The notes under the pieces are model-generated. The model was not told the DNA's origin and searched no databases. It saw only the letters and a program-made list of their open reading frames with translations. A program made the translations under genes and the position numbers. From a virus (lineage: Duplodnaviria > Caudoviricetes), in IMG/VR virus record IMGVR_UViG_3300038530_002083, positions 1 to 64,000 of that record: DNA of 64,000 bases. One strand, given 5' to 3'. Shown piece by piece: positions 21,515 through 27,511 of the stretch. Within the stretch, counting starts at the first letter, position 1; every line of letters starts with the position of its first letter.

Positions 21515-21904
21515 TTAGTAAGACCAAACCCAAGGGTTAAGAAACTTATCCCCGTACCCTATTCCTATGTGTATAAACCTGTTTTCCCCTTTTTGAGATA
21601 CACCTAATCGAGTTATTCCTTTCTTAATACATACAGAAATCAAATTATAGCAATCTTCGCCCCTTACAGACACGTCACAGCATACACCATAAGTATGTTC
21701 CCCTCTGATGGGTTTTGAAGATTCTACTGGATGTGTGGGGTGTCGATATCCTGATGTTATTATCATAGGTTTACCATACTCTTTTCTTATCTCTGATAGA
21801 ATTTCCATAAAGTCTTTGTCCATATCACAAATCCCTGTATGTTTACATTGAAACTCTTTTTCAGAGAAATTGGGGTAATCTTCCCAATTAATTTTATCTG
21901 TCAT
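21515..21904 (-). CDS. endolysin, peptidase M15 family
   Basis: NFSEKEFQCK, ITSGYR, H..G.CCD, FIHI. Confidence 0.85.
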   Translation of the reverse strand: MTDKINWEDYPNFSEKEFQCKHTGICDMDKDFMEILSEIRKEYGKPMIITSGYRHPTHPVESSKPIRGEHTYGVCCDVSVRGEDCYNLISVCIKKGITRLGVSQKGENRFIHIGIGYGDKFLNPWVWSY

Positions 21905-22046
21905 CTTTTATCTCTCTTATTTTCTTCCCTAGCAGGGTCATTTCGTCAAAAGTAAAACGATCTCCCCTAGTAAGGTTACACTCATAGCAACAAAGTGCTA
22001 CATTACCCTCTGTACGATCATCATAGTAACGTCTTAGTAATAGCAT
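21894..22046 (-). pseudogene. chimeric relic ORF (50 aa): DUF5675-like N-terminus fused to HNH C-terminus
   Basis: MLLLRRYYDDRTEG|NVALCCYECNLTRGD. Confidence 0.45.
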
Positions 22047-22096: not shown

Positions 22097-22282
22097 CTAG
22101 TAGTAAACTGTTTTTATACCCTTCTCTATCAGCAATAACTTCATTGCTTTACGTAAATCTCTTGTGTACTTCCCTCGCAGTCCTTTAATATAAGCAACCG
22201 AAGGGAAAGGGTACATAACTACAAGGGTAAAATCATCAGTTCTCCATATCTCCGTTGTGACTTCAACTTCTATATCAACCAT
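22097..22282 (-). CDS. small hypothetical protein, possibly truncated by a premature TAG
   Basis: Frame stays open 15 codons past the TAG, to TAA at 22049. Confidence 0.5.
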   Translation of the reverse strand: MVDIEVEVTTEIWRTDDFTLVVMYPFPSVAYIKGLRGKYTRDLRKAMKLLLIEKGIKTVYY

Positions 22283-22547
22283 CTTTTCTCGCCTCATATG
22301 TGTGATTAATGTACTTTAGTGCCCCAAATATAGCAGCGACAAGAGACCCTATTGCAGCCCAAAATGGGGTTTGCGCGAAGTTTTCTGGGGTGGTAATATC
22401 TTTGTACCACACTAATAGATCGTAGCATAGCCATGAAAAAAATATGACTACCCCAATCTCTACTAAACAGAAAAGGTTAAGAGTTATTGCTATGTCCCTT
22501 AAGTTTTTATGAGATGGAATATACTTCTTTAATTTTATAAAAAACAT
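22275..22547 (-). CDS. small membrane protein with 2 TM helices, holin/antiholin candidate
   Basis: Two hydrophobic helices, charged C-terminus, in lysis cassette. Confidence 0.55.
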   Translation of the reverse strand: MFFIKLKKYIPSHKNLRDIAITLNLFCLVEIGVVIFFSWLCYDLLVWYKDITTPENFAQTPFWAAIGSLVAAIFGALKYINHTYEARKDG

Positions 22548-23241
22548 CTTCGTCTAGTACCTTTTTATATTTATTTAGTTCTTCTTCCATTACAGATTTT
22601 TGAAAATTTTTATATAGACGTATGGCATATTGCTTACTGGCAGCTTTTCCTAAATAAACACTTTTATTGTTTCTGCTAGACTGCACATAGTAACTCCCTT
22701 TCTTGTATTGGTAACAGCCGCTGCCATCGTTAGAATTATTTTTTATAAACAACGCATTAAGTTTCTTAGGTACTAATCGACAAAACCTAGGGGAATACTC
22801 TTTTTCTGCGCAGTTGTGGGACATAATATCTTTGTCTATATCAAAACCTTGCATATATGCACATTTTTGGGAAGAATACCATTTTGCGAATTCTAGGTAA
22901 GAACACCAATCCTTACATACTTCTACTTTTTCGTAAGACTTGTGCCTAGGGCTATTTTCAGAGGAATAACATCTCCTTAAGATCCCTTTCCAGATGCTGT
23001 AAACTTTTTTATCAACAGGAAGTTCAGTTCCTAAATAACCTCTCCCATAGAAGTAAGGATAAAAAGGGTCTTTCACCTTTCCTGCTCTAATACAACACAA
23101 AGTGGTAGTCTTTCTGAATCCTGTATCTAGGAACTCTACAGTTACTTTTTTAGTATTTATGATACTAACAATCTTAAACACCCCATAGCTGTTAGACTCA
23201 TAAATTTTTCCTATTAACACCTTGTCGCTCAATTTTTTCAA
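22507..23241 (-). CDS. HNH-type homing endonuclease (paralogue of 8779..9630)
   Basis: YGRGYLG, WKGILRRCY, VCKDW, IDKD, YSPRFC..P..LN. Confidence 0.8.
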   Translation of the reverse strand: MKKLSDKVLIGKIYESNSYGVFKIVSIINTKKVTVEFLDTGFRKTTTLCCIRAGKVKDPFYPYFYGRGYLGTELPVDKKVYSIWKGILRRCYSSENSPRHKSYEKVEVCKDWCSYLEFAKWYSSQKCAYMQGFDIDKDIMSHNCAEKEYSPRFCRLVPKKLNALFIKNNSNDGSGCYQYKKGSYYVQSSRNNKSVYLGKAASKQYAIRLYKNFQKSVMEEELNKYKKVLDEDVFYKIKEVYSIS

Positions 23242-23317: not shown

Positions 23318-23617
23318 TTAATCTTTTCCCACATAATCCCTCTCTTTAAGTTCTTCTATTAAGTCTTCTTCTTTTTCATAACACTTCTTAACCTGCCCTA
23401 GGTTATAAGCCAACACTTCATAGAACGCTTTGAGAGACGTTTCCTGAGTATTTTCTTTAAGAGGGTAAGCTACCCTACAGGGTATCAATAGAGATTGGCT
23501 TATAGGGGCTTGTAGGAGCTTTTCTTCTACTTTAGTTTGTTCCGTTAATGGAACGGATGGAGTCGTTGAACAAGCTGTTAAGGTCAGCAGGAACAACATC
23601 ACAAGTATCTTGTACAT
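23318..23617 (-). CDS. o-spanin (Rz1-like lipoprotein)
   Basis: Signal with lipobox LTAC, overlaps 3' end of i-spanin; start probably MYKIL. Confidence 0.8.
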   Translation of the reverse strand: MYKILVMLFLLTLTACSTTPSVPLTEQTKVEEKLLQAPISQSLLIPCRVAYPLKENTQETSLKAFYEVLAYNLGQVKKCYEKEEDLIEELKERDYVGKD

Positions 23618-23948
23618 AAACTTTCTTCTCAATATATTCTGTTATAGTTTCTACATCAGAGTCTACTGCCTGTTCTGCTCTAATACGTTTGATAGTGTCT
23701 TCTTTATCTATCTCTGCTTGTCTACGGGCTTCTTTTAGTTTGTATATAACATATTCTTGATGTTGTGCTTGAACTTCGTCTAATTTAGCTTGGTACTCTT
23801 GAACAGCAGCATTATAGCCCCGATCATATATACCAGTCTTAATCTCAGACCAACCTACCCAAACACTAATACCTAAGAAAGCTGCTACACTAATTCCTAT
23901 AAGAAGTTTTCTATTTTTCAAAAATCCCAGTATAAAGGTCACGATCAC
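23532..23948 (-). CDS. i-spanin (Rz-like)
   Basis: N-terminal TM helix, periplasmic coiled coil, C-terminal Cys. Confidence 0.8.
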   Translation of the reverse strand: MIVTFILGFLKNRKLLIGISVAAFLGISVWVGWSEIKTGIYDRGYNAAVQEYQAKLDEVQAQHQEYVIYKLKEARRQAEIDKEDTIKRIRAEQAVDSDVETITEYIEKKVYVQDTCDVVPADLNSLFNDSIRSINGTN

Positions 23949-24360
23949 TTTCCTCTCTTTTCTGTATACGGTTGCATAATTTTATAATCTCGTTAGAATA
24001 CCCATTGCGTTTAACCGCTGATATGATATCCTCTTTAGAGAAAGGTTTATTAATGTACTCTAAGAAACCAGAGGTAAACGCGCTAACCCTGTCTTGTAGT
24101 TCTTTAGAACTAGACATTGCTAAGATAGGAATATGTTGTAGCTCATCTTTACTACGTATTTTTCTGGCTACATCAAAACCTGACTCATTTTTTAGATAAA
24201 GGTCTAAAACTATTACGTCAGGCTGAAATATAATAAGGTCACTAATTATACTGTCAGGAACAGGAGAGAGACAATATCGTGCCTCTATCCCTGAATCTGT
24301 TAACATAAAACCTAGCATAGCAAGTAATATAGGGTCATCATCGATGACAAAGGCTTTCAT
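23911..24360 (-). CDS. single-domain response regulator (CheY-like receiver)
   Basis: VIDDD, PDVIVLD (phosphoacceptor), GFD, IPILAMSS, YINKPF. Confidence 0.92.
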   Translation of the reverse strand: MKAFVIDDDPILLAMLGFMLTDSGIEARYCLSPVPDSIISDLIIFQPDVIVLDLYLKNESGFDVARKIRSKDELQHIPILAMSSSKELQDRVSAFTSGFLEYINKPFSKEDIISAVKRNGYSNEIIKLCNRIQKREESDRDLYTGIFEK

Positions 24361-24362
24361 AT

Positions 24363-24740
24363 TTATTCCTTTTTAGATGTGAGTTCTTTTTCTATATCCC
24401 TTACTGCGTTAAGTACTCGCAACTGCATAGTTAATTCTGTCATAGCAGACTTGATTTCTTTAACATCTGAATTAGTGTCTGCCCACGATTGTTTTAAATC
24501 CGTTAGATACTCTTGTAAGAGTTTCCTTGTTTGTTCTTCTGTGATAAATTTATTGTCATGTTCTACTTGTTGTTTAGCTACAGCTTCTATTAAAGTTCTA
24601 AGTTCAGAGATCGTCTTATCTTGTTCATCTGACTTCTTATCACCTCTTTTCTTATCGTACCAAAACCAAGCATTACCTATTCCACTACCAGAAGCTATAG
24701 CTGTAGCAATTAAAGATAAATGTTCTGGGCTTAATGCCAT
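24363..24740 (-). CDS. holin-like protein (1 TM plus coiled coil)
   Basis: GAGGAGG RBS before ATG 24740; hydrophobic N-terminus then KKR and heptads; heads the lysis cassette. Confidence 0.5.
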   Translation of the reverse strand: MALSPEHLSLIATAIASGSGIGNAWFWYDKKRGDKKSDEQDKTISELRTLIEAVAKQQVEHDNKFITEEQTRKLLQEYLTDLKQSWADTNSDVKEIKSAMTELTMQLRVLNAVRDIEKELTSKKE

Positions 24741-24741
24741 A

Positions 24742-25164
24742 TTATGAAACCTCCTCACTCATCATTAACAGGTGGGTGGCTGTCACTCTGTCAAGATATT
24801 TCTTATTATATGTACCAGCAGCATAAGCAGCTAACTCGAAACAGAACCATTTGTCTGTGTCGTCCCAGTCCCCTCTAAATACAAACCTAAATATAGCCCC
24901 CCAGTCATAAGACTTACCAAGCTGTTCTTTTAGTCTTCGTTGGAAATCACCTTTATGGGGTATTTCTATTACTTTGTATTTAGGGTAACGTTGTTTAAAG
25001 TCTTCAATAGAATTAGAGACTACTCCATGAGATGCAGTGGCTTCTATAACCTCATTATTAACAATAACCCCGCAATGAGACCAGTTACTCCAATTGTGGA
25101 GTCTAATAGCTAGACTCCCTATCTTGTTATTTTTACCTAGAATAATCTGCATTAGTCTACCCAA
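24742..25164 (-). CDS. permuted papain-like amidase (YiiX/YebB-type NlpC/P60)
   Basis: SHCGV, EATASHGV, GKSYD, WFCFEL. Confidence 0.85.
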   Translation of the reverse strand: MGRLMQIILGKNNKIGSLAIRLHNWSNWSHCGVIVNNEVIEATASHGVVSNSIEDFKQRYPKYKVIEIPHKGDFQRRLKEQLGKSYDWGAIFRFVFRGDWDDTDKWFCFELAAYAAGTYNKKYLDRVTATHLLMMSEEVS

Positions 25165-27190: not shown

Positions 27191-27511
27191 TTATTTGTGG
27201 TAGTTTCCATAGAGACAATGCATAAGTTCATGCCCTAATGTAAGAGCAAACTCATCATCTTCTCTAAGAGTTCGTGGTTCGTATACCTTTATATCGCATA
27301 CATTCCCTAGCAAATGCGCTTGACCTTTTAACCCTAAAGCAGGTTTTTTAACATTGTCATTAAGTTTACTCAAGGAATCATATGTAGTAACAGTAAGGAT
27401 AAGTTCTTCCCTTGTTTTGTCGAAGTCTTTTTTCACAAGAGGTCTTTCGTTACCACAGCTTGATAAAAGGAGGACTATTGTTAGCAATCCCCCAATAAGA
27501 GATAGTTTCAT
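27191..27511 (-). CDS. lipoprotein with HExxH zinc motif
   Basis: Lipobox LSSC, TLGHELMHC. Confidence 0.7.
   Translation of the reverse strand: MKLSLIGGLLTIVLLLSSCGNERPLVKKDFDKTREELILTVTTYDSLSKLNDNVKKPALGLKGQAHLLGNVCDIKVYEPRTLREDDEFALTLGHELMHCLYGNYHK

Follow-up and report, generated by a model that had tools for sequence, protein, structure and literature searches.

A stand-alone phospho-receiver and its coiled-coil membrane partner in phage lysis cassettes: a candidate accessory lysis module

Here we describe a gene at positions 23911..24360 (minus strand) of a 64,000-nucleotide stretch of phage DNA, hereafter the window, which comprises positions 1 to 64,000 of the IMG/VR virus record IMGVR_UViG_3300038530_002083. 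The gene encodes a 149-residue stand-alone receiver of the response-regulator type and forms a pair with the gene directly upstream (24363..24740, minus strand), whose product is a predicted membrane protein with a coiled coil, here called the partner. The linkage of this pair to lysis genes is strong and recurs in unrelated phages. In our estimate the chances are about even that the two genes constitute an accessory lysis module in which the receiver responds to phosphorylation and regulates a membrane lysis protein from the cytoplasm. A literature search combining response regulators with holins and spanins returned no description of such a module, which is a variant without a described counterpart.

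The receiver gene starts at an ATG with an AAGGA ribosome-binding site 6 nt upstream. Its product matched the Pfam family PF00072 (Response_reg) with 65.8 bits (cut-off 30.2; E=4.7e-18) over residues 4-117, covering profile positions 2-111 of 111. Response_reg is the sole domain; beyond it there is one helix, with which the protein stops at residue 149. An earlier reading of the window, made from its letters without database searches (the sequence-only reading), had described a stand-alone receiver with all signature residues, and every one of them was recovered: two acidic residues after beta1 within D7/D8/D9, the Asp at the end of beta3 (D53, in VIVLD), the Ser/Thr at the end of beta4 (S83, in AMSS) and the Lys at the end of beta5 (K105, followed by P106), which together form the complete active-site quintet. 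The aromatic switch residue, Y102, is also present. Among 13 phage homologues with 18-55% identity, D8, D53 and K105 are invariant, position 7 is Asp or Glu, position 83 is Ser or Thr, and position 102 is Tyr or Phe in 12 of the 13. The 149-residue protein is a new member of the receiver superfamily in which all residues of the phosphoryl chemistry are intact. The ratio of nonsynonymous to synonymous substitution rates (dN/dS) against relatives was ~0.2 in the case of the receiver, and the partner gave ~0.1-0.3; with dS saturated, these values are a rough sign of purifying selection only.

A structural model of the receiver was computed with AlphaFold2 from a 12-sequence alignment and reached a pLDDT (predicted local distance difference test) of 90.4, compared with 38.5 for folding of the single sequence. 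The model has the canonical (beta-alpha)5 core with five strands and five helices, from which alpha5 runs on as a single helix (residues 109-147), forming a stalk of ~39 residues. In a Foldseek search against the PDB, the receivers of PhoB, RR468, DivK and YycF were matched with TM-scores of 0.85-0.90 (normalised by target), and the only full-length matches were proteins composed of a receiver plus a stalk, namely WspR (3bre/3i5a, TMq 0.84-0.85), DctD (1qkk) and PleD. In WspR and DctD, too, alpha5 is a long helix leading into coiled coils that control the oligomeric state, but their stalk continues to a GGDEF or AAA+ output domain, whereas the phage protein ends with the stalk. The protruding helix could bundle with the coiled coil of the partner. 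In a second clade of phage receivers, represented by R8W g48 and H4/4 gp44 and showing the same pairing, the extension carries a conserved motif (...P.[RK]........KY).

Searches of the PDB by sequence returned the receivers of RpaA, PleD, YycF, RR468, PhoB and DivK, the best matches being of the RpaA, PleD, YycF and PhoB type and not CheY. Like CheY, DivK, CpdR and Spo0F, the phage protein stands alone as a receiver and has the full set of active-site residues; unlike them it comes without a cognate kinase or che genes and adds a C-terminal stalk helix of ~30 residues. By analogy with such single-domain response regulators it would be expected to act by phosphorylation-dependent protein contacts or by phosphotransfer. 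An assignment as CheY proper was rejected on the grounds of these best matches, of the stalk helix, which is absent from CheY, and of the lack of kinase, Hpt (histidine phosphotransfer) and che genes in the complete genome. The virus record, a marine Myoalterovirus-like phage whose closest cultured relative is the Alteromonas myovirus vB_AmeM_PT11-V22 (V22), comprises 93,581 bp with direct terminal repeats and is complete (estimated 100%). The sequence-only reading had noted the lack of a histidine kinase or output domain in the window, and a domain search extended the lack of a kinase to the whole 93,581-bp genome, in which neither HATPase_c nor HisKA nor Hpt was found and which holds one receiver only.

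The receiver family is rare. About six single-domain clusters of the window clade were found in 1.84 billion representatives, the matches being dominated by multi-receiver proteins, and BFVD contains very few stand-alone phage receivers, the top ones being alterophage proteins of this family. A search of bacterial genome contigs returned generic bacterial receivers only (<=37% identity), among which there was neither a prophage copy nor a close donor from a host. Single-protein searches of IMG/VR return near-identical relatives only.

The partner gene most likely starts at the ATG at 24740, which follows a GAGGAGG ribosome-binding site and gives a protein of 125 residues, and not at the GTG at 24758. 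Its product consists of ~8 N-terminal residues, a Gly/Ala/Ser-rich transmembrane (TM) segment ending in WFWYDKKR, and a coiled coil of ~97 residues. Hydropathy and flanking charges were evaluated for the partner and its homologues and revealed no basic residues before the TM segment and a basic cluster (KKR/RR/RLKK) after it. Because of these charges the positive-inside rule places the coiled coil in the cytoplasm, so that it is predicted to share a compartment with the receiver. The version of the siphovirus PB15 is tail-anchored, with MRK before its TM segment. Partner homologues are always located upstream of the receiver. In the window the partner stop codon lies 2 nt before the receiver start codon, and the gene following the receiver overlaps its end by 38 nt, which confirms the spacing given by the sequence-only reading and leaves partner and receiver translationally coupled.

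The TM segment of the partner (residues 9-28) is weakly hydrophobic, with a maximum Kyte-Doolittle value of ~1.3 over 19 residues, and it is Gly/Ala/Ser-rich like signal-anchor-release (SAR) domains; the TM segments of second-clade partners are strongly hydrophobic (2.3-2.4). Because of this weak hydrophobicity, membrane association of the partner might be dynamic in the window clade. The partner was also considered as a protein resembling His-phosphotransfer or DHp (dimerization and histidine phosphotransfer) domains, with the EH in VEHDNKFITE as the motif in question. This assignment was rejected, as the His is kept in the window clade only, has no H-box context and is not alignable in the other clades.

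The conserved linkage to lysis genes, which the sequence-only reading had listed among the checks of its proposal, was borne out by a comparison of phage genomes. The arrangement of a small single-pass coiled-coil membrane protein followed by a receiver was found in eight phage lineages, and in each of them lysis genes lie within two genes of the pair. The two genes are separated by a gap of 1-2 nt or joined by an ATGA overlap in most lineages, and are <= ~18 nt apart in the rest. In Myoalterovirus (lineage 1: the window, V22 and the metagenomic L010 and L101) a C92 amidase lies upstream and Rz/Rz1 lie downstream. Orthologues or close family members of the receiver occur in the cultured phages V22 (gp30, QHZ59753; 55% identity) and Schitovirus A5 (gp11; 37%), where the same partner precedes and the same spanins follow them; in lineage 2 (A5, L009 and L014) the order is pair, Rz, Rz1, two-TM protein and endolysin. 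In the siphoviruses R9Y1-3 and in L115/L116 (lineage 3) the pair is followed by a lysozyme with GH108 and PG_binding_3 domains, and in the Foturvirus podoviruses H4/4 and R8W (lineage 4) a phrog_1356 holin precedes the pair, which is followed by a two-TM phrog_2524 protein and TerS. The siphoviruses PB15 and XX1924 (lineage 5) show the order multi-TM protein, tail-anchored coiled-coil partner, receiver, M15 endolysin and GTA_holin_3TM; the PB15 partner matches phrog_937 'hemolysin' (E=1.8e-16). The remaining three lineages are represented by metagenomic loci: the IMG/VR contig L103 (lineage 6: pair, Hydrolase_2 endolysin, Rz, Rz1), L104 and L106 (lineage 7: pair, then an Amidase_3 endolysin), and L109 (lineage 8: pair, with WYWYDKQR in the partner, then a multi-TM protein, a GH24 lysozyme, Rz and Rz1).

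Across the lineages the flanking endolysins belong to at least five unrelated families (GH108, M15, Hydrolase_2, Amidase_3 and GH24). Since the lysis genes around the pair are unrelated from one lineage to the next, its association with lysis arose or was kept several times independently. The two-TM phrog_2524 protein of H4/4 (gp45; L013:3459-3830) has homologues in 45 phage records, mainly from Vibrio, Pseudomonas, Pelagibacter and Roseobacter phages. A single homologue is annotated as DUF3154, and the gp45 family may be an unrecognised holin family.

In the window itself the pair is embedded in a leftward late unit on the minus strand, which is transcribed in the order tail fibres and DUF4376 chaperone, amidase, partner, receiver, i-spanin, o-spanin, HNH endonuclease, two-TM protein, two small open reading frames (ORFs) and M15 endolysin. 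Directly upstream of the pair lies a permuted papain-like (C92/YiiX-like) amidase of 140 residues (24742..25164), which matched Pfam PF05708 with E=1.5e-4, below the gathering score, and phrog_1128 with E=2e-23. Its L109 homologue exceeds the Pfam cut-off, and on these matches the protein is a possible cell-wall hydrolase. The gene overlapping the receiver end encodes an Rz-like i-spanin of 138 residues (23532..23948), as the sequence-only reading had proposed, with an N-terminal TM segment by hydropathy, a periplasmic coiled coil and a match to phrog_4297 (E=3.5e-5); orthologues are present in V22, A5, L010 and L101. It is overlapped at its 3' end by the gene of an Rz1-like o-spanin lipoprotein (23318..23632; likely start at the ATG at 23617), which carries an LTAC lipobox and matched phrog_456 (E=1.8e-5) and phrog_4719 'Rz-like spanin', besides a weak match to Pfam LysC. 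With PHROG 'Rz-like spanin' matches for both products, the lipobox and the overlapping genes, the two form a two-component spanin, and the corresponding matches are stronger in the relatives L103 and L109. The o-spanin of V22 (L001:5744-6043) has no annotation in the public record. A sequence scan detected no convincing promoter or terminator between the amidase and the spanins.

Further downstream, a gene for an HNH-endonuclease-like protein of 244 residues (22507-23241; phrog_953, E=5.9e-35) separates the o-spanin from a two-TM protein. The HNH gene is preceded by a near-consensus promoter-like site at 23308-23280 (11/12 matches), and it looks like a mobile insertion in the lysis cassette, because it is absent from the same place in V22 and present in the IMG/VR relative L101. 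The two-TM protein (22275..22547; 90 residues, charged N- and C-termini, TM segments assigned by hydropathy) is the best candidate of the cassette for a class-II-like holin; it had no family match in Pfam or PHROG and is kept only in V22 and A5, at the same position. The unit ends with a peptidase M15 endolysin of 129 residues (21515..21904), which matched Pfam PF08291 (E=8.2e-11) and phrog_894 'endolysin' (E=1e-22) and is followed by terminator-like sites at 21511-21494 and 21414-21402. The 50-residue ORF at 21894-22046 (minus strand) starts like the DUF5675 protein of V22 and L101 (MxxLLRRYYDDRTEG) and continues with an HNH-like CxxC...N motif, and the endolysin gene stands where V22 and L101 have the full DUF5675 gene. 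These two observations suggest a gene replacement at the cassette end. Outside the cassette, between two tail-fibre genes, a predicted lipoprotein of 106 residues (27191-27511, minus strand) with a C-terminal HELMH (HExxH) motif is kept in V22 (ORF25). It has no family match and could be a small zinc-metalloprotease-like protein.

The partner itself is only a possible holin. The sequence-only reading had called it holin-like, which agrees with its single TM segment, its place inside the cassette and the fact that in the R9Y, L103 and L104/L106 lineages no other membrane protein adjoins the endolysin. In the window, the name fits less well, since the partner has no family match and a weakly hydrophobic TM segment and the protein of 22275-22547 is the better candidate. 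Other holin candidates than the partner also exist in H4/4 and PB15.

Lysis regulators that act from the cytoplasm on a membrane protein are known; in phage T4, RIII is such a regulator and acts on the holin T. In phage N4 the regulator gp62 works with the pinholin gp63 as a cytoplasmic lysis regulator (PMC12642591). The concept is the same as that proposed for the receiver, namely that lysis time is tuned through a membrane lysis protein by a factor that is located in the cytoplasm or faces it, but there is no sequence or fold relation to RIII or gp62/gp63, and a phospho-receiver is absent from both systems. What is called the 'Receiver domain' in N4 is a region of gp63 and not a REC domain, so that the shared term is a coincidence (PMC12642591). 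For the partner, the nearest architectural comparators are the releasin gp25 of phage Mu, a membrane-tethered cytoplasmic lysis protein with N-out/C-in topology and almost no periplasmic part (PMC9239132), and XhlA of PBSX, a coiled-coil membrane protein of the lysis cassette that works with the holin (PMC5589764). The likeness of the partner to Mu gp25 (DUF2730) and XhlA concerns architecture and cassette position only (~100 residues, one TM segment with basic residues at the junction, a helical cytoplasmic domain); homology was not detectable, and Mu and PBSX have no receiver. A protein-language-model search had led from the partner to DUF2730 clusters (score 0.92), but this membership found no support in sequence and profile tests, in which PF10805 was not among the Pfam matches at E<=5 and hhalign against Mu gp25 gave 0.9% probability. 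Read by sequence, the endolysins in the receiver cassettes show no obvious N-terminal hydrophobic (SAR) segment.

A link between response regulators and lysis has been proposed in another form: for the phage CtrA homologues ('lytic deferment') of Alphaproteobacteria phages, which are of the response-regulator type, it has been suggested that they postpone lysis depending on the state of the host (PMC9437464). They are full DNA-binding regulators acting on transcription, unlike the output-less receiver in the lysis cassette.

We propose a mobile accessory lysis module of two genes, in which the receiver would be the sensor in the cytoplasm and the partner its counterpart, which would be anchored in the inner membrane by its one TM segment (N-out, C-in) and present its coiled coil to the cytoplasm. 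Because the phage has no kinase, D53 would have to be charged by host phosphodonors, which may be cross-talking histidine kinases, Hpt proteins or acetyl phosphate. Phosphorylation of D53 would switch the alpha4-beta5-alpha5 face together with the attached stalk helix, and the switched receiver would change, in one direction or the other, its association with the coiled coil of the partner. The partner would then act as, or on, the holin or the endolysin-release step, and lysis timing would be coupled to the signalling or energy state of the host. What was observed is the anatomy and the linkage, namely the conserved active site, the obligate and translationally coupled pairing, the repeated placement in lysis cassettes, the predicted common compartment and the stalk helix; phosphorylation, direct binding, the direction of regulation and an effect on timing are inferred. 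The sequence-only reading, which had likewise let the receiver read the host state and bind the neighbouring coiled coil to set lysis timing, is to that extent supported in part. Membrane-tethered cytoplasmic lysis proteins and cytoplasmic lysis regulators as in Mu, N4 and PBSX provide precedents for such steps (PMC9239132, PMC12642591, PMC5589764). This full version, a phosphorylation-gated switch by which a mobile module reads host phosphodonor or kinase activity and sets holin triggering or endolysin release, is put forward tentatively, as possible though short of probable.

Several observations weigh against this proposal. Horizontal transfer has given Myoalterovirus and A5 the entire block in common (PMC10579305), and lineages 1 and 2 therefore count as one event and not as independent ones. 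Tail-fibre or chaperone genes precede the pair wherever its upstream flank was readable. A distant phage receiver, in L105, adjoins a zeta-toxin/AAA_33-like gene and not lysis genes; this locus (L105:2935-4507, from a 94-kb IMG/VR virus) encodes a TM protein of 107 residues, the receiver and then a zeta-toxin/AAA_33-like P-loop protein of 371 residues. The survey of synteny and fusions suggested by the sequence-only reading had a divided outcome: the order membrane protein, receiver and lysis gene recurs, but no fusion of a TM coiled coil with a receiver was found among longer proteins, which is weak evidence as long proteins crowd out relatives in that search. Searches of Pfam and PHROG placed the partner in no family, and the matches obtained with the partner family were coiled-coil noise. 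A comparison of the partners of the two receiver clades by hhalign gave 31% probability, a weak result, and judged from their sequences the partners could represent a convergent architecture rather than one family. Finally, in the window the protein of 22275-22547 is a better holin candidate than the partner.

The same position in the genome could also reflect nothing but late co-expression. In that case the membrane-held receiver would serve late in infection as a decoy or phosphate sink, either drawing phosphoryl groups off the kinases or Hpt proteins of the host or competing with these for binding partners, so that host chemotaxis, envelope-stress or defence signalling is shut down. Sink-type single-domain receivers are established in bacteria, and an orphan receiver with intact chemistry and neither output domain nor kinase would suit this role. 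All cultured carriers infect a single genus, Alteromonas (the uncultured contig L103 has a guanine-plus-cytosine content of 55%), which fits a host-specific target, and the published view of these genes as 'class II AMG (auxiliary metabolic gene), signalling' points the same way (PMC7289586, PMC10579305). We nevertheless regard the decoy as unlikely, as it accounts neither for the insertion of the pair into lysis cassettes, between holin and endolysin or spanin, across eight lineages whose lysis genes are unrelated, nor for the three lineages in which no membrane protein other than the partner adjoins the endolysin; a sink, moreover, has no need of a conserved stalk helix. A different reduction of the proposal would keep the lysis function and drop the signal, the receiver fold being a phosphorylation-independent adaptor that binds the partner or another lysis protein. 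Atypical and pseudo-receivers acting without phosphorylation are known, and no phosphodonor has been identified for the phage protein. We consider this quite improbable: D8, D53 and K105 are invariant and D7, S/T83 and Y/F102 are retained at ~20% identity, a pattern that would hardly arise unless phosphoryl chemistry were under selection.

The tail genes upstream of the pair, in the lineages with a readable flank, could instead make it an accessory of host recognition, for example in tail-fibre maturation, receptor masking or superinfection exclusion, and the pair has been described within the 'host recognition module' shared by A5 and V22 (PMC10579305). Against this, a holin parts the tail fibre from the pair in H4/4 and R8W, as does a multi-TM protein in PB15; the neighbours that stay constant are those for lysis, the two proteins are predicted to reside in the cytoplasm or at the inner membrane, and a lysis cassette downstream of tail genes is common in any case. 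A tail function is therefore very improbable in our view. Least credible, to the point of being virtually dismissed, are the annotated roles, which are those of a PhoB-like DNA-binding regulator in R8W and H4/4 and of a hybrid histidine kinase-response regulator in V22; only the database annotations and the interpretation in the R8W paper speak for them (PMC8228385). They are refuted by domain content, as the protein ends after the stalk helix, has neither the Trans_reg_C winged helix of OmpR/PhoB-type regulators nor a helix-turn-helix, and contains no HisKA or HATPase_c, which are missing from the genome as well.

In the literature, A5 gp11 was called a CheY-like AMG, with gp10, gp12 and gp13 left as unknown (PMC10579305), R8W g48 was called PhoB and interpreted as an adaptation to low phosphate (PMC8228385), and no function is given for the V22 neighbours gp29, gp31 and gp32 (PMC7289586, PMC10579305, PMC8228385). 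The papers on the V22, A5 and R8W receivers mention neither spanins nor holin candidates nor a link to lysis (PMC7289586, PMC10579305, PMC8228385). In the public records the V22 receiver is annotated as hybrid histidine kinase-response regulator and those of R8W and H4/4 as PhoB or DNA-binding response regulator. The deposited product names in MN877442, MW043865 and MF278336 conflict with a domain content of a receiver and one helix.

Lysis timing sets burst size and phage fitness, and the known lysis timers are holin-intrinsic clocks and antiholins that sense superinfection. We know of no lysis system with input from two-component phosphoryl signalling. If the receiver acts as a phosphorylation-responsive regulator of lysis, its carriers would gain a direct read-out of the physiological state of the host at the lysis decision, and the present annotations 'AMG', 'PhoB' and 'hybrid kinase' would have to be corrected. 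The idea is directly testable in cultured carriers with available hosts (V22, A5, R8W, H4/4, R9Y1-3, PB15 and XX1924). If it holds, the pair would represent a new class of lysis-timing control, spread horizontally among unrelated tailed phages and compatible with many endolysin types, which would matter for marine copiotroph hosts such as Alteromonas and for the way in which viral lysis feeds carbon cycling.

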